From a virus (Duplodnaviria; Caudoviricetes): a stretch of 58,873 bases of DNA. Below, piece after piece: positions 2,593-58,567 of the stretch. The stretch covers positions 1-58,873 of IMG/VR virus record IMGVR_UViG_3300043036_000281; one strand, given 5' to 3'. Below the pieces are notes generated by a model. The model was given only the letters and a program-made list of their open reading frames with translations, was not told where the DNA came from and made no database searches. The number at the start of each line of letters is the position of its first letter. Within the stretch, counting starts at the first letter, position 1. Made by a program: the position numbers and the translations under genes.

Positions 2593-4290
2593 ATGTTAGC
2601 GAGAATCGAAAATTTCCGAGGGATTCGCCGAGGCGACTTCCAGATCAAAGGCCTGACCCTGATCGGTGCGGACAACTACGCGGGCAAGTCATCCCTGGCC
2701 CAGGCCGTTGGTGCTGCGCTGACCGGGCGCCCGCTCCCGCTCAAAGGCATGACCAAAGCCATGGCCGGCCTGCTGGTGCGCAGCGGCGCAACCAAAGCCT
2801 TCGTCGAGGTAGCCACCGACGATAATGAAAGTGTGGTACGGATCAATTGGCCGAAAGCCGAAGTATCAACTGAAGGCCCAACCCCGCCGACAGCCACCGA
2901 ATGGGCCGCCGGCCTGATCAGCCTTGCGCATATGGACCCGCAGGAACGCAGCGTTGCACTGACTGACTTCCTGCAAGCCGTGCCGAGCAAAGCAGACCTG
3001 GCGGCCGAGCTGAAGAAAGCGGAGATCTCTGAAAAGGCCACCGAACAATTGTGGGCGATGATCACCGAGTTTGGCTGGGAGGAATCCGAACGCAAGGCCC
3101 GCGACAAAGGCAAAGAGTACAAATTCCAGTGGAAGAACATCACCGGTGAAAACTGGGGGAGCAAAAAAGGCGAGAGCTATGTTCCGGCCGACTGGGATTA
3201 TGAACTCGACAAGGAAGGGACCAACCTCGAACAGTTGCAGGCCGACGTCGACAATTACAAATCCGAGTTGGAATCGGCGATCGCCGCCAGCGCCGTCGAC
3301 TTTGCGGAGTATTCCCGCCTGCAAGAACTGGCCGATACCGAGGGTGAGCGTCACCAAGCACTGGACGAAGTCGCCGGCCGCTTGAAGGCAGCCCGTGAGG
3401 CTGAAGACCTGGCGAACCAGGCCGTCACCGATAATCCAATGCCGACGGCACTGCCAACCACCGTGGACTGCCCGCACTGCGCCATGGCCGTCATTATCCG
3501 CGGCGGCAAGCTGTTCAAGGTCGAGGACACGCTGTCTCCCGAGAAATTCGCCGAGATGCAGACCGCCCACATGGACGCCCGCAATGCAGCGGCCACCGCC
3601 CGGGAACTGTCGCAAACCATCGGCGCCGAGCATGGCGCGGCCCAGTCCAAACTGACCGAGGCCAAAGACGCCCAGGCCAAGGTACACGCACTGGATGAGG
3701 CGGCTGAAGCCGAAGGTGATAAAACCGAAGTAGACGTGGAAGGCGCCCGCGCCAGCCTGGCAGCCGCCGAAGCGCGCCTGGGATCATTCAAGAAGAAGCA
3801 CGACGCCGATCGCATCCACGCCGCGATCGAGAAAAACCAACTGGTGGTCGATATCCTGGCCCCCAGCGGTCTGCGTTTGAATGTGCTTTATGCAGCCGTT
3901 CGCAAATTCTGCGACGAGTGGGTCAAGCCACTGATCAAGGCATCGGGCTTCCCTTCCGTGGCAATTGACCGCGAGCTGTCGCTGACCCTGGGCGATCGCG
4001 TTTACCTGATGCTGTCGGAAGCGGAGAAATACATTGTCCGCGTGGTGCTCCAGACCGCCATGGCGATGAAGCTCGGCGACAAGGTAATGGTGATCGATGC
4101 GGCCGACATCCTGATGCGGACCGGGCGTAACAGCCTTGTGAAAATGCTGATCAAGTCGGGCATCGATACCCTGCTGTTTATGTCCCTGGCATCAGTTAGC
4201 GAACTGCCAGACCTGGCAAAATCTGGCAAAGGCAATTCTTATTGGATCGAAGATGGGGAGGTTGTCGAGCGCTCGACCGCTACTGCATAA
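2593..4290 (+). CDS. Rad50/SbcC-like coiled-coil ABC ATPase
   Basis: Walker A (GADNYAGKSS), coiled coils around a CPHC hook, degenerate signature LSEAE, Walker B VMVID. Confidence 0.75.
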   Translation: MLARIENFRGIRRGDFQIKGLTLIGADNYAGKSSLAQAVGAALTGRPLPLKGMTKAMAGLLVRSGATKAFVEVATDDNESVVRINWPKAEVSTEGPTPPTATEWAAGLISLAHMDPQERSVALTDFLQAVPSKADLAAELKKAEISEKATEQLWAMITEFGWEESERKARDKGKEYKFQWKNITGENWGSKKGESYVPADWDYELDKEGTNLEQLQADVDNYKSELESAIAASAVDFAEYSRLQELADTEGERHQALDEVAGRLKAAREAEDLANQAVTDNPMPTALPTTVDCPHCAMAVIIRGGKLFKVEDTLSPEKFAEMQTAHMDARNAAATARELSQTIGAEHGAAQSKLTEAKDAQAKVHALDEAAEAEGDKTEVDVEGARASLAAAEARLGSFKKKHDADRIHAAIEKNQLVVDILAPSGLRLNVLYAAVRKFCDEWVKPLIKASGFPSVAIDRELSLTLGDRVYLMLSEAEKYIVRVVLQTAMAMKLGDKVMVIDAADILMRTGRNSLVKMLIKSGIDTLLFMSLASVSELPDLAKSGKGNSYWIEDGEVVERSTATA

Positions 4291-4399: not shown

Positions 4400-4741
4400 G
4401 TGGCTCATAGAAAGTTGAAGGACCTGGCCGTAAAGGTTGGGGAGTACGAATCACAAGGCGAAAAGAAGAGCAGATGGCACAACGTAGGCGCGCTGATGGA
4501 TGATGGTAACGGTGGCCAGTACTTGATGCTCGATCGTTATTTCAATCCGGCCGGCGTGCCAAACCCTGAAGGCCGCGCTTCGTTGCTGGTGTCGATGTTT
4601 GATCCGAAGGACAACCGGACAGCCGCGCCAGCCACTCAGCAACAGCGTGCACCAGCGCAACGACCTACGCCACAACAACCGCGGCCCCAGGCGCCGCCAC
4701 AACAGCGACCACCGAATAAAGATGACGATGTGCCGTTCTAG
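4400..4741 (+). CDS. SSB-like single-stranded DNA-binding protein
   Basis: Small beta-rich domain, Q/P-rich linker, C-terminal DDDVPF; GTG start with AAGGGG RBS. Confidence 0.6.
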   Translation: MAHRKLKDLAVKVGEYESQGEKKSRWHNVGALMDDGNGGQYLMLDRYFNPAGVPNPEGRASLLVSMFDPKDNRTAAPATQQQRAPAQRPTPQQPRPQAPPQQRPPNKDDDVPF

Positions 4742-4772
4742 AGTCTACCCACCCGCACAAAGGATGCAACAG

Positions 4773-5051
4773 ATGTCGAACGAATTAAGAGAGCGTTGCA
4801 TTTACAGCCTGACCTCGCGCGGTTACACGCACAAGGCTGCCAACAGCATTTTCACCGAGATCATGAATGACCTGGCCCACACGCTGCTCGCCGACGGAAA
4901 GGCTGTTTTGCCCGGGGTCGGCACCCTGAAAAAGTATCGCCGCAAAGCCCGCAAGGGATATGACATACAGCACGGGACAATGGGCGAGATCCCGGAGACA
5001 ATCGCTGTGAAGTTCATCCCTGCCAAGCAAATCAAAGACGCTCTGAATTGA
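4773..5051 (+). CDS. Divergent HU/IHF-family DNA-binding protein
   Basis: LPGVGTL...RKARKG...VKFIPAKQIKDALN; AGGA lies 8 nt before the ATG at 4773. Confidence 0.75.
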   Translation: MSNELRERCIYSLTSRGYTHKAANSIFTEIMNDLAHTLLADGKAVLPGVGTLKKYRRKARKGYDIQHGTMGEIPETIAVKFIPAKQIKDALN

Positions 5052-25533: not shown

Positions 25534-26388
25534 ATGGCCTACTTCAACATTAACGTCGATTTGTCCGAACTGATGAACCTTGCCCCGAACCTGAGCAAGG
25601 AGATCTTCCCGCGCCTGCACGAGGCTGTCGGCGCTGTCGCTGCAGCGGCCCACCGGGATTGGACGGCCGCGGTGATGAATGCCCCGCTATGGTCGAAGGA
25701 ACGCCAGGAATACGCACGATCGATCACCTGGGACTATAAAGGTGCATTCTCCGCAGAAGTGGTCGCCACCTACAAGAATGCTGAAGCGATCGAAACCGGG
25801 CGCGCAGAACGCGACTTGAAAAAGATGCTGGATACCAGCCTCAAGGTGCGCCGGACTGCCAGCGGCAAGCGATTCCTGATTATCCCCTTCCGCCACAACA
25901 CGCCAGGAAACAACGCCAGTGGCAATGCAATGCCGTTCGCCGTCTACCAACAGGCGCGCGACCTGGCCAAGTCATTGATCGTTGGCAAAGGCGAGCGCCT
26001 GGCCGGACACACCGTGCACCTGATCCCCGGGGCCGGCATGGTGGTCGCTCGCAAGCAACCAGAATTCGCCTCAGATCCGAGCACCAAAGGTCGCGCCATG
26101 GTGCCGTCCAGGGATTATCGCTGGGCCGGCGCACTCAAAAGCGGCGACCTGGCCAAGCACGGGAAAGACGTTCAGAACCGGTATGCGGGTATGGTCCGCA
26201 TGGAATCGAGCTCGGGCGTCGAAAGCCGCAGCTCGTACATGACGTTCAGGGTGATGATGGAAGGCTCTAGCGGCTGGATCATCCCGGCGAAGCCTGGCCT
26301 GTTCCTCGCCAAGCAAGTCGCCGAACGCATGACGCCGCTCGCTGAAGAAGTGTTCCATGAAGCGGTGAAGCTGGATCTCGGCGGTTAA
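25534..26388 (+). CDS. Probable neck/tail-completion protein, inverted relative to its neighbours
   Basis: Basic 284-aa protein; IE.G...DLK, FLIIPFRH, YMTFR, GWIIP; stop overlaps the convergent gene. Confidence 0.6.
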   Translation: MAYFNINVDLSELMNLAPNLSKEIFPRLHEAVGAVAAAAHRDWTAAVMNAPLWSKERQEYARSITWDYKGAFSAEVVATYKNAEAIETGRAERDLKKMLDTSLKVRRTASGKRFLIIPFRHNTPGNNASGNAMPFAVYQQARDLAKSLIVGKGERLAGHTVHLIPGAGMVVARKQPEFASDPSTKGRAMVPSRDYRWAGALKSGDLAKHGKDVQNRYAGMVRMESSSGVESRSSYMTFRVMMEGSSGWIIPAKPGLFLAKQVAERMTPLAEEVFHEAVKLDLGG

Positions 26389-27029
26389 GCACCGTTCTCG
26401 ACACGCCCCAACAGATCGAACTTGCGCAGCACCACTTTGCGCGGCAGGCGTGCGCCCGAATGGTGGGCTCGATCCTGAGGGAAGTCCTGGTAGCAGAAAT
26501 ACTCCGGGAGCCGGCGCCCGGTGATGCTGTACATCATGCCAATCGGTGGCTCGCCGAATGCCCAGGTCAGCGTGCCGTCCTCGGCTACATCGGGAATGCC
26601 GCCGTCGACAATCGCCTTGTTCTCATCCAGCCAGAACACACGACGGATCGATACGACGGTAAACCACAGCTTGTCATTGCCGCCACGGGTCAACTCGAAG
26701 GAAAACGGCTCCGAACTGTTCAGCATGGTGGCCCGATCGTAATCACCGATATCGTACAGCGGCGAATCACTGGGAATGGTCAGCACCACGTCGCCCGCCT
26801 GGAAGCCACCGAAGTCGGCCCACTGGCGCTGGATCTTCATCCCGGCGATGCCCGACATCCCCTGCTGCTCCGCTTCCCAGATGTGCCCGCGGCCTAGGCA
26901 GTTCGGGCATTCAGGATCTGCCGAGCCGTAGCCGGCGACCGAGCACGGGCAGACGAACGACGGCCGCCAGCCGAACAGCTGGCCAAGGTCATTCAGGTGG
27001 GCATTGAACTCGTCGGGATTGAGGTGCAT
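26385..27029 (-). CDS. Head closure/neck protein with a Zn-finger
   Basis: CPC...CPNCLGRG; position after the adaptor. Confidence 0.6.
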   Translation of the reverse strand: MHLNPDEFNAHLNDLGQLFGWRPSFVCPCSVAGYGSADPECPNCLGRGHIWEAEQQGMSGIAGMKIQRQWADFGGFQAGDVVLTIPSDSPLYDIGDYDRATMLNSSEPFSFELTRGGNDKLWFTVVSIRRVFWLDENKAIVDGGIPDVAEDGTLTWAFGEPPIGMMYSITGRRLPEYFCYQDFPQDRAHHSGARLPRKVVLRKFDLLGRVENGA

Positions 27030-41405: not shown

Positions 41406-41726
41406 TCAGCTGATACTGGGCTTGGCAATGCCTTCACCGACGCCGATCTGTTCGCCGGTCTCAATCGCAGAGGTTTGTCGGAAGCCGTTACTGTCGCGCA
41501 TCAAGTCGGAATTTACCGTAGAGGCAAGCACCACCTTGGCATCGGCGTTGTACGCCAACTCGGCGTGCAGCTTGTCGACGCTGGCGTGATAGCCAAGGCC
41601 GTCATAGGCCGACAGCGAGCACAGGCGATATGCCACGGTCTCGGCGGCGCCGGCAAACTGGAACCCGCACATGGCAAAAGCCATCGCGCAGAACATGGAA
41701 AGACTTCGGAAAATTCGCATCGGCAT
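41406..41726 (-). CDS. Hypothetical protein with a signal-peptide-like N-terminus
   Basis: GAGG RBS; lies between HU and the terminator. Confidence 0.5.
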   Translation of the reverse strand: MPMRIFRSLSMFCAMAFAMCGFQFAGAAETVAYRLCSLSAYDGLGYHASVDKLHAELAYNADAKVVLASTVNSDLMRDSNGFRQTSAIETGEQIGVGEGIAKPSIS

Positions 41727-41799
41727 TGCCTCTGGATCGGGGGGAAGGGTTAACCGCGTGTGCGGGCTGGCCAGATCGGCATCAGTGGCGTTGGTTGAA

Positions 41800-42075
41800 T
41801 CAGCGATTCACAGCGGCCTTGAAGTCAGCGCCCGGGGCGAACTTCGGTACGATGGCAGCAGCAATCTGCAGCGCGGCGCCGGTTTGAGGGTTGCGGCCAA
41901 CACGGGCGGTGCGTTCGGTCGTCTTGAACGTGCCGAAGCCCACCAGGCGAACTTCCTGGCCGTGAGCCAATGCGTCCTGCACTTCATGCAGAATCGAATC
42001 AAGAACATCCTTTGCGACGGCCTTGGAGACGGCGGCGCGTTCTGCAACTGCGTCAATCAGATCTTGCTTATTCAT
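41800..42075 (-). CDS. HU-family nucleoid protein
   Basis: MNKQDLI..., V.LVGFGTF, R.GRNPQTG, PKF.PG. Confidence 0.95.
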   Translation of the reverse strand: MNKQDLIDAVAERAAVSKAVAKDVLDSILHEVQDALAHGQEVRLVGFGTFKTTERTARVGRNPQTGAALQIAAAIVPKFAPGADFKAAVNR

Positions 42076-42110
42076 CGAGTACTCATCCGTGCTTTTGGGT
42101 TGAAGGTGTT

Positions 42111-42231
42111 GCAGAAAGCCCTACTCGGTACCTGTCGCCCCTTGGCCCGCGGTGACCCCAAAGGGACGGAACCTAAGCCCACTGTGCGAAGCGGGGGCGA
42201 TCTCATGTTTCAGTTGTCACGAGCTTTCTGC
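42111..42231 (-). ncRNA. Candidate rod-shaped structured RNA upstream of HU
   Basis: Nested inverted repeats GCAGAAAGC/GCTTTCTGC, CTCG/CGAG, TCGCCCC/GGGGCGA. Confidence 0.4.
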
Positions 42232-42396
42232 ATCGGACAAGTATCAAGTAGGCCGGGCCCGGCTTACTGCGCAATCTAGGGGGATTCGAACCCCAGGCAT
42301 CGGTTGGCTGCGAACTTGAAGCCCCCAGGGCCAAGTGTGTATGCGCTTCCCGTTGTACAGCCTATGCCGCGCAGGCTTGATACTTGTCCGATACAG
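42228..42396 (-). ncRNA. Candidate tRNA-like RNA closed by a 21-bp stem
   Basis: Perfect 17-bp inverted repeat (42232-42248/42376-42392), inner CTGCGC/GCGCAG stem, T-arm GGGG-TTCGAAT-CCCC. Confidence 0.55.
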
Positions 42397-42419
42397 CCTG
42401 GGCGGCCAGGTTGCGTCGG

Positions 42420-42475
42420 TCCTGTCTCTCCAGGATGTATGGGCCAGAAGCTTGCCATTACCGCCATTCTCGTCA
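42420..42475 (-). repeat. RNA motif copy B: TGACGAGA...ACA-TCCTG-GAGAGA-CAGGA
   Basis: Same architecture as 42679-42725, with compensatory stem changes. Confidence 0.45.
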
Positions 42476-42507
42476 GGACAGCGTTTTAAGCTGTGCAGAG
42501 TCGAATA

Positions 42508-42584
42508 TGGTTGCGGGGGCTGGATTTGAACCAGCGACCTCAAGGTTATGAGCCTTGCGAGCTACCGGGCTGCTCTACCCCGCA
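42508..42584 (-). tRNA. tRNA-Met (CAT), initiator-type, with encoded CCA
   Basis: TGCGGGGTAGAGCAGCCCGGTAGCTCGCAAGGCTCATAACCTTGAGGTCGCTGGTTCAAATCCAGCCCCCGCAACCA; full cloverleaf. Confidence 0.95.
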
Positions 42585-42678
42585 AAAACTTTGTATTAGA
42601 TGTAGTCCCTGACCCGACGAGTGCATCAGGACGAGTGAGTCTTCAACCAGACCAAGGACCACACTGATAAAAAGTTGT

Positions 42679-42725
42679 GTCTGTCTTTCCAGACTGTCAG
42701 CGACCTCTACTTACTGATCCCGTCA
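42679..42725 (-). repeat. RNA motif copy A: TGACGGGA...ACA-GTCTG-GAAAGA-CAGAC
   Basis: Same architecture as 42420-42475. Confidence 0.45.
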
Positions 42726-42976
42726 CCCCACCGCAACAGGTCTATCAGTTTTTAAGGACGGCTCCCAGGGCGGAACACTTTATGGAAGTGACCCCGTGCC
42801 GTACTGCGTGGGATTTTCAGCCGCCCTCTCCACGCCCTGACGTCCAGCTTACCCAGCGTCTGCACAAAGCAAGGAGGGAACCTTGTGCTTCAACTAGCCC
42901 GGCTGGCCCGGGAACACACAACACCCAATCAGCGATCCCCATCGCTGGATGCACAATAGACCAACGACAACACGAA

Positions 42977-43303
42977 TTACAACCCCACATCGTTATCAAA
43001 TATCGTTATTTCTTCACCATTTTCGGCGGTTACAGTCGATCTGCCCAAATTGAACACGGCGTTTCTGCCATATTCCTCGGCCGCGGCGGTTAATGCCGCT
43101 TCCAGGGTTTCGAACGGAGGCATGGCGGCGACCACTTCGGGATCGACATAAGGCCCCAGTATTGGCATCTGGTTGCGGTCGTAGAACTTCTTCAGCAACG
43201 CCTTGATGAAGAACCAATAGACGCCGAAGTTTCGATAGCGCTTCGGGTCTTCATCCAGAAGCTTGCGCACATTCGCCGCGTATTCTTTTGCCGAGACGGT
43301 CAT
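42977..43303 (-). CDS. Hypothetical protein coupled to the DarB-like gene
   Basis: 108 aa; ATGA overlap; AGGAG RBS. Confidence 0.7.
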   Translation of the reverse strand: MTVSAKEYAANVRKLLDEDPKRYRNFGVYWFFIKALLKKFYDRNQMPILGPYVDPEVVAAMPPFETLEAALTAAAEEYGRNAVFNLGRSTVTAENGEEITIFDNDVGL

Positions 43304-46300
43304 GCTGCGTTCTCCTGCAGGGCTTCACCCAGGGTTCCGGCCCGTGCCGGGTAGATATGCTTCAACGCCCAAGGGAGCTCGTCGATCTTCAGCGCGCCGA
43401 GCTCTGGATTATTCTGCACCAGGACACGAATCGCCTGCTTGGCTTGTTTCGCGACAACGGTGGTAGTTCCAGAATAGCGGCTGTCGTGTTGCTGCTCCGA
43501 CACCGTAGCGAGCATTTCCAGCGCCTTGCGCGGCTGATCCTTCCAGTGGTCGAGCACCATTGCCGCCGCCAGGTCCTGATGGCCTGAGACACTGGCACGC
43601 TCGATCAGCGAACTGATCAATGGCAGATCCGCATTGAGAATCTGATGGTCCGCCTTCTGGTCACCGCCGGTGGCGTATTTGCTCACCTGGCCCAACAGAT
43701 CGACGCGCTTCGCTTGGGCGTACAGGGTCGCGATGGCACGTTTCGGCATGGTCACCTTCGGCGTGCCGTACCCAGCGACCTGCGCCAGGGGTTTCAGCGC
43801 CTGGTAGGCTTCGGCCAGTGTCTTGGCGTGACGCCCTTCAGTGATGGCCGACTGCGCCACACGGCGCATGGCTTCCGCCTCGAACTCGCTACCGAACAGC
43901 TTTTTGCCGACCTCGCCCCATGGGTTTGTGTACCAGTCCCAACCGCCGTCGTACTTCTGCCGAAACACGTAGCTGCCGCCCGAGCTGTTCTTGCGCCCGT
44001 TCGACTGCCAGTCCATGGAGAACTTCTTGCTGCGCTCGGCGCCGACGTAGGCATCAAGCACTTTCGCCCGGTGCTCATCGGTGGCCAACAGATAATCGTC
44101 CTCGCCCTTGTCGCTGTAATAGGTGACCACTTTCGGCACACCATCGGCGCCGAGCAAACCCACGCGGCCGTTCTGGAAGTCGCTGGGCATCTTGTACGCC
44201 TTGCGTGCTTCCTTCAGCTGGGCCTGGATCTGCGGGTAAAGCTTCTTCACGGTTTCGGCCGGCAACTGCGCCACCTGCGCCGGGGAGGTAATTGCGTTCT
44301 CGCCGGAGCTGACAGTCTCTTCAGCACGGCGCGCCATTTCGGTGGCTTCAACGGAATGGTCCAGCTTGCTGACGGACAAGTCGCTGCCGATATCGGACAG
44401 TTCCACGCCCATCGAGCGGGTACCAGCGTAGTGACGCAGACGCAGACGGCCGTCCTCAGGATTGACCCCGGTCACCACCCAATCACCACCCTCGCTGATT
44501 TTCGACTTCGGCCCCAGATGCAGCACGGTGTCCAGGGTAATCCCGGCGCCGGTATCCGGGTGCACGACCGCGGGAGCGTCACTGGTCAACAGATCCTTGG
44601 CGGTGAACCACTTCGAACTCGCCAGGTTGTTTTGCGCTTTCTCGATCTCGGCCGCCAGTTTGATCGCGCTGCGACCACCTTTGCCGGCCAGCTTCGAATA
44701 GCTGCGCTTGAGCCCTTGCAGGCGAGTGAACTGCACGGCCACTTCGCGACGTTTCTCGCTGCCCTGGCGCTCGAGCGCAGCCGACTTGTTCTCGGCGAAC
44801 TGCTTGCGGGCTTCGTCCGGATCGGCGGCCAGCATGATCAGCATGTCCTCGCGCGCCAGGTTGTCCGGCCGGTTGTGGTTGGCGATCGTGTTGCCGCCGT
44901 TCCACAAATCGCCCTGCCAATCGCGCTTCGAGGCGACGGTCTGGTATTTGTAGCCGTCAAAGCTGCCCTTGGACAGGTAGGTGTGAATCCGCACCGCCTC
45001 GCTGATGTTGCCCTGGCGCAGACCTCGGCCGTTGCGCTGCTGGATGGACGCCGGCTCCCACGGCAGATCAAGGTGGTGGATGTCAGTGGTGCCCACCTGC
45101 AGGTTGATGCCCTCGCCCATGGTGGCCGTGTTGCCGATCACCACCTTGATTTTACCGGCGTTGAAATCGTCGGCAATGCGCTGGCGTTTCAGCGAGCTGT
45201 TCGCCACCTGGGCGTTAATGATCGCGATTTGGTTGCGCGGGATGCCACGCTTGACCAGCTCAGCGGCGATTTTCTCGTGGGAGGCGACGAAGTCAGAGAA
45301 CACGACTTGCCCGCCATCCTGGGCCCCGTTGGTGATTTCCTTGGCCGCGGCCTGGTACTTCGGCGAAACGTGGCCGGCATAGGCGACCGGATCCAACAGT
45401 TCCAGGTCCATCGATGCCTTCGACATCTTGTCCATGATGCTGAAGATATGCCCGTCGCCGGTAGCGTCGTCCTTCTTGGCCGACTCCTCAGCCAAGGCGC
45501 GCAGATCGACGTAAGCCGCTTTCTGCTGATCATCCATATCAACGGCGTGCATGCGGTCATCACGCGACGGCAGCACCAGGCCGACATCCTCAGCGGTGGT
45601 CCGGTGGATGTAGCGGCGCATGATCTCGCGCAATTCGTCCATGTTCTTGAAGCCGCTGGTCACCAACGACTCTTCGATCTCGCCGGTGGTGCTCAGGATG
45701 TTTTCCGTGGTGAACACACAGAAACGATCGAGGAAGTCTTCGCTGTTGCGGATCCCGATCTTTTCGAAGGCCTCCGGCGCGACGTAAGACAGCATGCTGT
45801 AGATTTCCAGCGGGCTGTTTTTGGTCGGCGTGGCCGTCAGGGTGAACACGTTCTTGCCGTCGTTGTTGTCGCGGATGTAGCGGGTTTTGAACGACATATC
45901 GAACGCGCGGTTCGACTGGCCCTGGCCACCGAGGAACTTCGGTGTTTCGCCGAAGCGGTTGCGCGCCGCGTACAGGTTCTTGTAGGCGTGGCCTTCATCC
46001 AGGATAAGCATGTCGACGCCCAGGTCCTCGAAGCTGATAGCGTCGGTGCGGTCCTGGAACTCTCGGCCGGCTACGGACTGCTCGTAGGCTTCTCGGACCT
46101 TCTTGATACGCTTGTCGCCCGCGTTACCCAGCTTTTCGCCGCGCTGCACCCAGAAGTCATCGGACAGGTAGTTGTTCTTCAGCTCCGGTGAGACGTCGAC
46201 CTCCTCGAACGCCGGCTGGCTGATCAGGATGAAGTCGTAATCGTTCTGGGTCATGTCGTGGTATTTGCGCTTGCGCTCGGCCACGGTGTCCTGCTTGCCG

Positions 46301-56746: not shown

Positions 56747-56912
56747 CGTCCTGAACTTCGGTCCCGGGAGCGGGCTTGCCACCGCCGGTACCTGCATCGA
56801 TCAGCGCCTGGATGTCAGGCGGTGTCTCAATCGTGCTTTCGCTACCCTCGGGCCGACCGTCATAACCTTCGTCATACAGGTCCGGCCGTTCCTTCACGCT
56901 GGGGATGCTCAT
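56730..56912 (-). CDS. Small acidic protein coupled to the Zeta-like gene
   Basis: 60 aa; ATGA overlap. Confidence 0.55.
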   Translation of the reverse strand: MSIPSVKERPDLYDEGYDGRPEGSESTIETPPDIQALIDAGTGGGKPAPGTEVQDEKNPA

Positions 56913-58567
56913 GCTGCTTTCCTCGATGTGTCGGCTTCAGCCGCTTTGCCCTTCTGCGAAATCAGGATAGGCGGGGAGCCCTTCGGTACGTTGTTGTCCC
57001 TGAAGGACCAATCGTCCACCAGGTGCTTGACCTGGTCAAACGCTTTCTCGTTGGTGGTATTGGAGAGCACGACGTCGACCGGCACGTAACGGCCTTTCTC
57101 GCCGCCGTTGAGGAACCGGCCAACAGCGCGCTTGGCCGCCTCCTGGCGTGGCAGGTGCATATAGTGGGCCTCGGTCTGGTAACCGGCTTCCTTGAACGCG
57201 TTGACGTCTGCAATCGCAGACCGCGCGGTTTTCATCGTCTTGTCCAGCACCACGTTCAACCCCAGGGCCCTGGCCAGCTCGGTGACCTTATCGAAGATCT
57301 CGCCAGACTCTTCATGCACCTGCGCCGCATTCCAGCCTTCGTATTCCGGGATCATGCTCTTGATGTGGTCGGCATCGAGGACGATCGCCTTTTTCGAGTC
57401 GTAGACCGTGCCGTCGAACGACGACTTACCGGAACCACCGCGACCGCCGAGGATGATGAACTTGGGTTTTTCCCCTTCGGCCGGCGTGGCGCGCTTGACC
57501 GCATCGGGCGACAGCATTTCACCGATGATCTTGTGGTGCAGCACGGTGCGTTGGGCGGTCCACTTGCCGTCCTTCTTCTGTGTATCGATGGTCTGCTCAA
57601 TCGATTTGAGCCGATCCTGAGCTGCTGCGATGCGGTCCTTGGTGTCTTCAGGGAAGTGGTCGAGGATCGAATCGGCGCTCACGTCCGGGTCATCGTGCTC
57701 GGCGGCATAGTCGTTGGCGCTGAATTTGTCCGGCTCGACTTCCGCCTGATCACCCTTCACTTCGTTTTTCACGTCAGATTTAGGCGCTTCATCTCCAGGC
57801 ATGGAATGGGTGACTTCGTGGTGGTGCACCTGGTGTTCACGTCCGGTCGAGTCCTTGACGGTCATGCCGTCTTTGCCGACCGCGGCCACCTCACCTTCAC
57901 CCGCATGCTCGCCGGCCTTGAATTTGACTTTGTGCCCTGGCTGGATGTCGTGGGTGCCGTAACCGACGGCACTGCCGCGCTTGTCGTGTGGATCAGGGTC
58001 CGCTGACTTGTGCGGAGCCTTCTGGTCAATGCCGGTTTTCTTCCAGCGCTTGATCGTGTGGCCGGTTTTATCGGTGGTGGACTGCAACGCGACGCCGGGT
58101 TGCCCCTTGATGGCCTTGGCCAACAGCTCCTCACGCGATCCCGCGCTGACCAGGATGATGGTTTTTGCCAACAACTCTTCCACCGGCGCCAGGCCGCGCA
58201 GATCACTGAGGATCGAACCAATCGCCTTGGTCATCTTGGTGGTCGCGTCGTCGTCCTGCTCGACATTGCCCTGCAGGAAGAAGCGCTTACCGTCCTCGGT
58301 TTCGCAAATCGAACCGTCCTCGCCCTGGTCGATGATCGAGGCTTTGCGCTCAACGCGCTGCTTGTGGCCGTGCAGTTCCGCCCAGCGCACTTTGTGGTGC
58401 TGACCTTTGTCGCATTTCACCGTGCAGCCGTGTGCACCCGAGGCCAGCACCTTGCCGGTCATTGGTCCGTGCTCGGCATGGTTGAAATAGACCGAGTCGC
58501 CTGGATGCGCGCGCGGCCCGTCAGTCGGCTCGATCGGTTTGGCTTTCGCTGGTGGTTTCTGATTCAC
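56909..58567 (-). CDS. Polyvalent protein with a C-terminal Zeta-toxin-like P-loop kinase
   Basis: ILGGRGGSGKSS, LDAD.IK, HEES, VVLD.T, A..RA..R...GRYVP; two SH3/KOW-like N-terminal repeats. Confidence 0.8.
   Translation of the reverse strand: MNQKPPAKAKPIEPTDGPRAHPGDSVYFNHAEHGPMTGKVLASGAHGCTVKCDKGQHHKVRWAELHGHKQRVERKASIIDQGEDGSICETEDGKRFFLQGNVEQDDDATTKMTKAIGSILSDLRGLAPVEELLAKTIILVSAGSREELLAKAIKGQPGVALQSTTDKTGHTIKRWKKTGIDQKAPHKSADPDPHDKRGSAVGYGTHDIQPGHKVKFKAGEHAGEGEVAAVGKDGMTVKDSTGREHQVHHHEVTHSMPGDEAPKSDVKNEVKGDQAEVEPDKFSANDYAAEHDDPDVSADSILDHFPEDTKDRIAAAQDRLKSIEQTIDTQKKDGKWTAQRTVLHHKIIGEMLSPDAVKRATPAEGEKPKFIILGGRGGSGKSSFDGTVYDSKKAIVLDADHIKSMIPEYEGWNAAQVHEESGEIFDKVTELARALGLNVVLDKTMKTARSAIADVNAFKEAGYQTEAHYMHLPRQEAAKRAVGRFLNGGEKGRYVPVDVVLSNTTNEKAFDQVKHLVDDWSFRDNNVPKGSPPILISQKGKAAEADTSRKAA

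Follow-up and report, generated by a model that had tools for sequence, protein, structure and literature searches.

A diverged, enlarged relative of the Proteo-phage-1 RNA predicted in a non-coding island of a Caudoviricetes virus

Rfam lists Proteo-phage-1 (RF03044), a motif of phages and prophages, under the type 'Gene; sRNA'. The 6S RNA of phage lambda is the late leader that extends from PR' to tR' and is read through under Q; it is not known to have a conserved structure. The put elements of HK022 are cis-acting antiterminator RNAs made of two stem-loops of ~65 nucleotides (nt), with two sites per genome. Bacterial Y RNAs of the YrlA type consist of a long stem plus a tRNA-like domain. 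GOLLD (RF01998) and ROOL (RF03087) were also considered. Weinberg et al. 2017 describe both as large RNAs of phages and prophages that often lie beside tRNAs (PMC5737381). Proteo-phage-1 does not occur in the main text of that paper, and its name was not found in the searchable literature. In the present work, a 901-nt island (42076-42976) of the IMG/VR virus record IMGVR_UViG_3300043036_000281 (Duplodnaviria; Caudoviricetes) was compared with these systems. The whole record of 58,873 nt, ~64% complete, was analysed and is referred to as the window; unless stated otherwise, all its features lie on the minus strand. The main structured RNA of the island, ~320 nt long (42589-42906), is on sequence comparison a diverged, enlarged member of an extended Proteo-phage-1 family.

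A search with the Ulx-like protein encoded just upstream of the island returned four related viral loci, with protein identities of 94% for L002 and L003 and 62% for L004. The 260 nt directly 5' of a tRNA-Met gene proved to be nearly invariant in L002/L003 and L004, far better kept than the flanking protein. A covariance model (R1) was built from the window, L002 and L004. When it was run on 19 ulx-like loci, one further relative was matched, L027 (2899-3076, 31.7 bits), directly after its ulx-like gene and in the same place as in the window, so that the window-type comparison comprised three lineages plus L027. The Rfam model RF03044 matched L027 at 2868-2948 with 60.6 bits, overlapping the 5' part of the R1 match; its gathering score of 42 bits was passed by L027 and missed by the window. 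With a pattern taken from the RF03044 consensus, at least 120 viral contigs were matched and 80 loci were fetched. R1 recognized 38 of these 80 loci at E below 1e-3, and its matches were 180-240 nt long, compared with the 82 positions of the Rfam model.

The link was also obtained in the opposite direction. A second model (R2) was prepared from 35 canonical sequences and L027 (36 in all), the window-type sequences being left out. R2 matched the window at 42669-42879 (31.8 bits, E ~2e-9), as well as two close relatives of the window, L016 (36.6 bits) and L018 (32.4 bits), and 71 of the 80 pattern loci. Two cultured Pseudomonas phages were recognized too, phiAH14a with 232.9 bits and Solano with 86.9 bits; the RNA of phiAH14a occupies ~26303-26522 of its record (L197 3484-3703). 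In the window, matches of R1 and R2 were located on the minus strand only. The window further carries helices P4-P8 of the extended family and its landmarks AGAC...GGG...GUCGC/GGC...GGAAAGAC. Since R1 and R2 connect the window with the canonical set each way, its RNA can be assigned as a Proteo-phage-1 relative. According to the same alignments, the 82-nt motif of Rfam covers no more than the first third, counted from the 5' end, of an RNA of ~220 nt, present as a single copy in each of the genomes checked.

Other searches were carried out with different patterns and profiles. Two conserved stretches, used as exact patterns on viral contigs, gave the three known relatives again and nothing else, and no distant relative emerged from nhmmer with a three-sequence profile. 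The 3 matches of a 19-mer scan of genome contigs were all due to chance, the alignment being limited to the 19-mer, and 12 of the 16 loci found in viral contigs with a looser pattern were likewise chance matches. A metagenome scan yielded 25 loci, none of which was matched by R1; five of them were tested with R2 and none matched. Several metagenome loci (L052/L055/L065/L072, L054/L057/L058/L059, L060, L069 and L071) form a recurrent variable family, with the motif near position 1500 in some, which shares GGUCGCU...CUGGAAAGACA...ACUUUUUGUACAG with the P8 region of the window. As it is matched by neither R1, R2 nor Rfam, this family may represent a structured RNA that is unrelated or related only very distantly. 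In addition, contigs of the public runs X1 and X3 over window 42640-42918 and 42827-43309 carry the RNA region in a variant form that shows 20-35 differences, among them 42718 A>G (RNA sense), which turns a U-A pair of P6 into U.G. These contigs point to more window-type lineages in public reads.

The secondary structure was examined in an independent MAFFT/RNAalifold alignment of the 36 canonical sequences. It consists of 47 pairs in nine helices, and a standard pair is formed in 96.4% of the cells. Changes on both sides were observed in 25 of the 47 pairs, and one pair is an invariant U.G (36/36) that the other strand would read as A.C. The canonical pairing was equalled by none of 500 shuffles, and slid partners paired in just 31-45% of cells. 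The 5' part comprises P1 (CCAGG/CCUGG), P2 (CGUCG/CGACG, with both-side changes in 4 of its 5 pairs), the long-range P3, the long hairpin P4 and P5; the 3' part comprises P6/P7 (CAGCG-AGA-UCGAUGC...) and P8 (GCGCG-GAAAGA-CGCGC). The P2 loop, GCCGG, is complementary to CCGGC after an A-rich run. This pseudoknot is our reading of positions that the Rfam structure line leaves unpaired, and as its strands are invariant in the 36 sequences, they are uninformative within the canonical set. The full form of the family, as deduced from the alignment, is a ~220-nt RNA with helices P1-P8 and the putative pseudoknot. Solano is devoid of P5-P7 and a second tier of members shows short or different 3' parts, indicating that the family is modular.

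The window RNA shares with Proteo-phage-1 the P1 hairpin beside the conserved GGAC junction, followed by P2, the loop of which is, on our reading, complementary to a stretch past an A-rich run. P1 pairs 42906-42902 with 42848-42844 (CCAGC/GCUGG; apart from the canonical CCAGG/CCUGG, other members have CGCGG/CCGCG or CGCAG/CUGCG) and, in contrast to the canonical form, holds a ~53-nt insertion hairpin (42901-42849). P2 (42842-42839 / 42825-42822) reads CGUC/GGCG, compared with CACC/GGUG in L002, a compensatory difference, and its loop falls within the 13-15 nt typical of Proteo-phage-1. The putative pseudoknot (42835-42830 / 42811-42806) would be formed by GCGUGG/CCACGC instead of the canonical GCCGG/CCGGC, so that the two subfamilies differ in a compensated manner. 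Then follow hairpin P4 (42802-42758), helix P5 (42757-42754 / 42707-42704), P6/P7 (42749-42713), P8 (42694-42679, GUCUG-GAAAGA-CAGAC) and an extra 3' rod of 86 nt (42674-42589). The portion beyond the 82 Rfam positions, P4-P8 plus the rod, amounts to ~240 nt, and it ends at a tRNA rather than at a terminator. RNAalifold on the three window-type sequences gave 86 pairs, 9 of them compensatory. The original prediction, which was made from the letters of the window alone, had proposed a multibranch domain closed by GGACG-TCAGGGCG / CGCCCTGG-CGTCC. The comparison supports other pairings: the conserved GGAC forms a single-stranded junction, the P2 loop contains GGGCGUGG, which would pair with CCCACGC, and the 3' strand of hairpin P4 is made up of CGCCCUGG.

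The genomic order observed around canonical members is NinG, a hypothetical gene, the RNA, holin/endolysin/Rz and terminase. In phiAH14a, NinB and NinG precede a hypothetical gene (gp54, AlpA-like), after which come the RNA, lysis-type genes and terminase; the RNA of Solano has early genes on one side and endolysin, lysis protein and terminase on the other. The flanking genes were surveyed with 54 open reading frames (ORFs) around 38 loci. The same-strand gene upstream was phrog_3412 in 5 loci and phrog_3373 in 2, and in one NinG was fused or adjacent; downstream, holins (3) and Rz-like spanins (2) were found, and HicB-like genes were present on the opposite strand in 4 loci. Pfam returned nothing for 13 upstream ORFs, and a PDB sequence search with two upstream proteins gave nothing useful. 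A structural model of the phrog_3412 protein was obtained from a 5-sequence alignment, with a mean predicted local distance difference test score (pLDDT) of 67. It resembled AlpA in RNA-polymerase complexes (Foldseek probability 0.97, E 0.07), with a VIA-align Z of 11.4 and a root-mean-square deviation of 4.1 over 134 residues, the next entry having a Z of 3.7. The protein therefore models as an AlpA-like (Q-type) antiterminator. According to two studies, AlpA is a Q-like processive antiterminator that loads at a promoter DNA site, after which the polymerase passes a terminator located just downstream (PMC7969949; PMC9371919); lambda Q, PR' and tR' are named in the former (PMC7969949).

An intrinsic terminator, made of a 9-12 base pair (bp) GC-rich hairpin and a T-run, starts within 14 nt of the RNA end in 25 of the 48 full-type members, and a further 7 calls were weak. 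In 7 of the 48, P8 is directly followed by a tRNA-Gly(UCC)-like sequence, two of the seven being called by ARAGORN. For 7 of 71 members, the same program called a same-strand tRNA at a distance of up to about 75 nt, and four of these were tRNA-Met. Throughout the family, the predicted RNA 3' end lies ~10-15 nt after P8, at a terminator or where a tRNA starts; the window has tRNA-Met in this role, after the rod. The canonical members display both features of a late leader, namely an antiterminator gene upstream and, in 25/48 of the full type, closure by a terminator. By analogy, the canonical RNA may be said to occupy the position of the lambda PR'-6S-tR' leader in lambdoid Pseudomonas-type phages. 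Like lambda 6S, it is a short promoter-proximal unit that is flanked by an antiterminator gene and the lysis genes and ends in an intrinsic terminator. Unlike lambda 6S, the Proteo-phage-1 family is strongly structured, and in the case of the window copy both the antiterminator gene and the terminator are missing.

In the window, the tRNA-Met (anticodon CAT) was located at 42508-42584, 4 nt past the 3' rod of the main RNA. It was called by ARAGORN and by Rfam (RF00005, 67.8 bits with a gathering score of 29), in line with the tRNA around which the island had been drawn. At the other end, a promoter-like site (42953-42982) is composed of a -35 element TTGTAA (42982-42977), which overlaps the stop codon of the ulx-like gene, an 18-nt spacer and a -10 element TATTGT (42958-42953), with a predicted start near 42946. 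The hexamers are invariant in L002 and L004 and the spacer is variable. In L002, the conserved RNA is separated from tRNA-Met by an insertion of ~160 nt (L002 3710-3874), the end of which is a terminator-like hairpin, CCTCGGA...TCCGAGG, followed by CCTTTAATT.

Taken together, these data make it most likely, with a confidence somewhat above even, that the main RNA is a discrete stable RNA produced at the start of a late transcription unit and acting as RNA. The island would be transcribed from the promoter-like site at 42982-42953, probably with read-through into the HU gene, and the main RNA would be the first product of the late unit. Its 3' end would be set by RNase P at the 5' end of tRNA-Met, at the point where relatives use a terminator. 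Once released, the RNA would persist as a separate folded molecule and act by binding protein rather than by serving as a message. This reading is favoured on the basis of the fixed 3' end, the unrelated gene families found upstream and the occurrence of the RNA without an AlpA-like gene. The existence of a diverged form in unrelated ~90-kb phages that do not carry that antiterminator argues that the RNA has its own job.

Several results weigh against the discrete-RNA reading or the assignment on which it is based. The RF03044 model gave no match in the window (41700-43400; 42770-42920) or in L016 or L018 at E up to 10, which indicates a diverged relative below the Rfam membership threshold, and the E-values of the custom models R1 and R2 are rough owing to a shortened calibration. 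The window block alone folds marginally better than shuffles (z -1.87), so that the case for its structure is comparative, not thermodynamic. The promoter candidate, which had been put forward in the original prediction, holds as far as its hexamers and their conservation are concerned; it scored 8/12, below threshold, and a consensus scan returned 0 sites. No clear -35/-10 elements were found in an upstream alignment of canonical members. Between the main RNA and HU, no intrinsic terminator was detected besides a weak call on P8 and its U-run, and upstream of the window RNA an antiterminator gene is absent, the ulx-like gene being there instead. The window therefore shows neither of the two features of a lambda-type late leader. 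An AlpA-like profile (A7) matched 0/5 window-type records, 3 of them complete, compared with 3/3 positive controls, and relatives of phrog_3412 and phrog_3373 were not found among the window ORFs. In four public runs (wastewater metagenome, labelled as probably DNA), short low-depth contigs covered genes and island alike and foreign tRNAs were piled on the tRNA, which is evidence neither way. Finally, the position at the head of an operon suits a cis-acting leader equally well.

Such a leader, a folded RNA that stays tethered to the transcript or the polymerase and controls elongation into the late genes by antitermination or insulation, is a possible but clearly less probable explanation. The RNA always heads a co-directional gene block: in canonical members it lies between the AlpA-like gene and the terminator, and in the window its single copy stands at the start of the HU/tail-fibre block. 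P8, with its conserved GAAAGA loop and, in the window, a U-run after it, was flagged as terminator-like. The logic of such a device would be comparable to that of HK022 put or lambda nut. HK022 put is likewise a structured phage RNA that opens an operon directly behind the promoter; it differs from the present RNA, which is 220-320 nt long, putatively pseudoknotted and single-copy. With a tRNA adjoining (in the window and in 7/48 canonical members), RNase P could cut the RNA away from the polymerase during elongation, and tethered action of the put type should end once this occurs. The RNA is also found with several unrelated upstream gene families, and the window type occurs without the AlpA-like one. 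Moreover, AlpA/Q-type factors load via promoter DNA sites and not via RNA, as stated in PMC7969949.

A wider proposal can be offered only tentatively, as we regard it as improbable in its full form. The extended Proteo-phage-1 RNA would be a late-leader RNA, released by a terminator or by RNase P, that acts on the transcription or host-takeover machinery. It would represent a phage counterpart of 6S-type or sponge RNAs, ranging from lambdoid prophages to ~90-kb phages with Dar-type genes. The stem-closed modules described below would be a new class of RNA cassettes, sharing CUGCAUCGG...CCGAUGCAG as a handle of ~20 bp, which might be a site recognized by RNase III or by a protein, with exchangeable cargo, of which one type is tRNA-like. 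Proteo-phage-1, one of many orphan RNA motifs, now has a testable anatomy, and its presence in the cultured Pseudomonas phages phiAH14a and Solano makes its function directly testable.

Downstream of the tRNA the island changes from phage to phage. The 270 nt after the tRNA (42507-42238) have no counterpart in L002, L004 or L025, and this includes a spacer unique to this phage (42397-42507), which contains a GGAGAGA motif. Next comes a stem-closed module of 169 nt (42228-42396), delimited by a 21-bp stem, CUGUAUCGGACAAGUAUCAAG / CUUGAUACUUGUCCGAUGCAG, and enclosing a T-arm-like hairpin, GGGG-UUCGAAUC-CCCC. The inverted repeat of 21 nt (42228-42248 / 42376-42396) is 95% complementary, and its single mismatch becomes U.G on the minus strand, as had been anticipated for mismatches in this region. 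The module (42396-42228) folds well compared with shuffles (z -4.27). It had been described as a 21-bp-closed tRNA-like RNA. The closing repeat was borne out, and the likeness to tRNA is limited to the T-arm-like hairpin, as neither ARAGORN nor the Rfam tRNA model called it.

Related modules were encountered elsewhere. The ends AGGCUG[CU]AUCGG...CCGAUGCAGA are common to the window and to two modules each in L002 and L004, that is, five modules in three related phages, whose inner stems and interiors differ; the conserved closure of the family is CUG[CU]AUCGG...CCGAUGCAG. A pattern based on the module ends gave 54 viral loci, where ~11 were estimated by chance and ~6 look random (~48 remain), and the family can be considered widespread in viral contigs. 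The stems measure 18-26 bp and keep their complementarity with many different inner sequences, most modules carry interiors other than that of the window, and the flanking genes are diverse. Wobble pairs leave the strand unsettled across the family. An 86% ortholog of the window module was found in L242 (1391-1559), likewise after a tRNA; its stem has C-G in place of U-A, and the T-loop-like hairpin is kept. Rfam 15 returned one tRNA and no other match for twenty module loci, and blastn of a stem-closed module against 50,697 phage records gave no match. These modules are regarded as a second, RNA-like family that is absent from Rfam 15, and the window module may be a processed RNA cassette. 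The claim that the island holds undescribed RNAs stands for this family and falls for the main RNA, a relative of the already filed Proteo-phage-1.

Alternatively, the stem-closed module could be a decayed tRNA gene or a mobile inverted repeat resembling a miniature inverted-repeat transposable element, as its T-arm-like GGGGTTCGAATCCCC, its 21-bp terminal inverted repeats and the variable, moron-like contexts would suggest. We consider this unlikely. Inner stems differ and yet stay complementary over many distinct 18-26-bp stems, and the interiors are unrelated between modules, which are therefore not copies of a single mobile element. The L242 ortholog retains both stem and hairpin, and no target-site duplication was seen in the sequence. 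A Y RNA was also considered, given the long closing stem and the internal T-arm-like hairpin. It was set aside: most modules have other interiors, Rfam was unmatched and no Ro/TROVE gene was present among the window ORFs scanned, the window being 64% of the genome. Two other arrangements were noticed. In L089, the GAUGAAUGCGCAGGCUG motif known from the flanks of stem-closed modules comes after the 3' end of a Proteo-phage-1-type RNA, and in L243 (903-1175) a module lies right after an HU gene (phrog_379), whereas that of the window lies upstream of HU. The two RNA families are hence neighbours elsewhere too.

The remaining stretch before HU (42076-42237) is best described as the 5' untranslated stretch of that gene, a separate structured RNA being unsupported. 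A rod-shaped RNA had been predicted there (42085-42240); it did not withstand comparison with shuffles, 56 of 200 of which folded equally well (z -0.56). Positions 42112-42237 are 95% identical to L002, about the background identity for both phages.

It was also considered that the conserved block could be a DNA element such as an operator, an origin or a packaging site, on account of its near invariance in three phages with a flanking protein just 62% identical and of a direct repeat, CACTCGTC, present in two copies in the 3' rod. This is very unlikely in view of the compensatory changes at 25/47 pairs, the invariant U.G (36/36) that is A.C on the other strand and the strand-specific model matches. 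The weakest reading takes all ~900 nt of the island as a single large ornate RNA resembling GOLLD and ROOL. It draws on the continuous pairing potential on a single strand and the adjoining tRNA, and it can be practically discarded: the GOLLD and ROOL models had no match in a scan of the whole window at gathering scores or in 41700-43400 at E up to 10, close relatives gain, lose and swap modules independently of one another (the L002 insertion; the 270 unique nt) and canonical relatives stop at a terminator after ~220 nt. The main RNA is, besides, much smaller than GOLLD and ROOL and has a different modular architecture. Of the two options originally envisaged, the single ornate RNA was thus abandoned, and the island is best seen as independent RNA modules arranged one after another on the minus strand. 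A succession of several RNAs, or a polycistronic precursor, is plausible, the anatomy (one promoter-like site, the same strand, no terminator before HU) being consistent with the latter. Among minor candidates, a retron was dropped as no reverse transcriptase was found and an attP remnant as no integrase was found; a CsrA/RsmA sponge was dropped too, the GGA motifs having been noted by eye only.

The island is non-coding, as had been predicted for the stretch between the DarB-associated gene and HU. Pfam had no match for its ORFs 42677-43093 (plus strand) and 42244-42543 (minus strand). The former, the longest in the island, overlaps the true ulx-like gene, and its frame is broken by a 1-nt indel in L004 despite the highly conserved DNA there. 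A scan against Rfam 15, a check proposed together with the prediction, detected nothing besides the tRNA in 41700-43400 even at E up to 10, GOLLD and ROOL being absent, and blastn of the island against the 50,697 phage records matched the tRNA and nothing else. Of the smaller hairpins predicted, CAGCGAT/ATCGCTG (42947-42930) and CAAGG/CCTTG are present in the sequence. The first, CAGCGAU-GGGG-AUCGCUG (42930-42947), lies upstream of the conserved RNA core and is not conserved in L002/L004.

The gene order on the minus strand is a 1982-amino-acid (aa) DarB-like ORF, the 108-aa Ulx-like ORF, the island, HU and tail-fibre-like genes. The ulx-like gene (42977-43303), which comes after the DarB-like ORF, matched phrog_1629 'Ulx-like anti-restriction' (E 1.8e-14). 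The next gene downstream of the island (41800-42075) encodes an HU-family DNA-binding protein (Pfam PF00216 Bac_DNA_binding, E 4.9e-31). Complete relatives of this virus measure 86-94 kb and have direct terminal repeats.

Some further observations were made in the related loci and in the rest of the window. In L025, whose Ulx-like protein is 53% identical, the ulx-like gene is followed by a gene-poor stretch of 1.3 kb with a tRNA-Thr (2822-4160); neither R1 nor R2 matched it, and it may be a different RNA island. A segment of 48 nt is 100% identical between L002 (4116-4163) and L004 (3806-3853), where the neighbouring protein is 62% identical, and in L004 it lies just after a tRNA-Asn. In L018 (4350-4398), after HU and a tRNA-Trp, a near-threshold match to abiF RNA (RF03085) was obtained with 33.5 bits, the gathering score being 37; a counterpart of this stretch is absent from the window. 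The window contains a second HU-family ORF at 4599-5051 on the plus strand (PF00216, E 6e-12), and a Zeta-toxin/AAA_33 kinase domain (E 6e-26) is encoded by an ORF of 552 aa at 56909-58567 on the minus strand.

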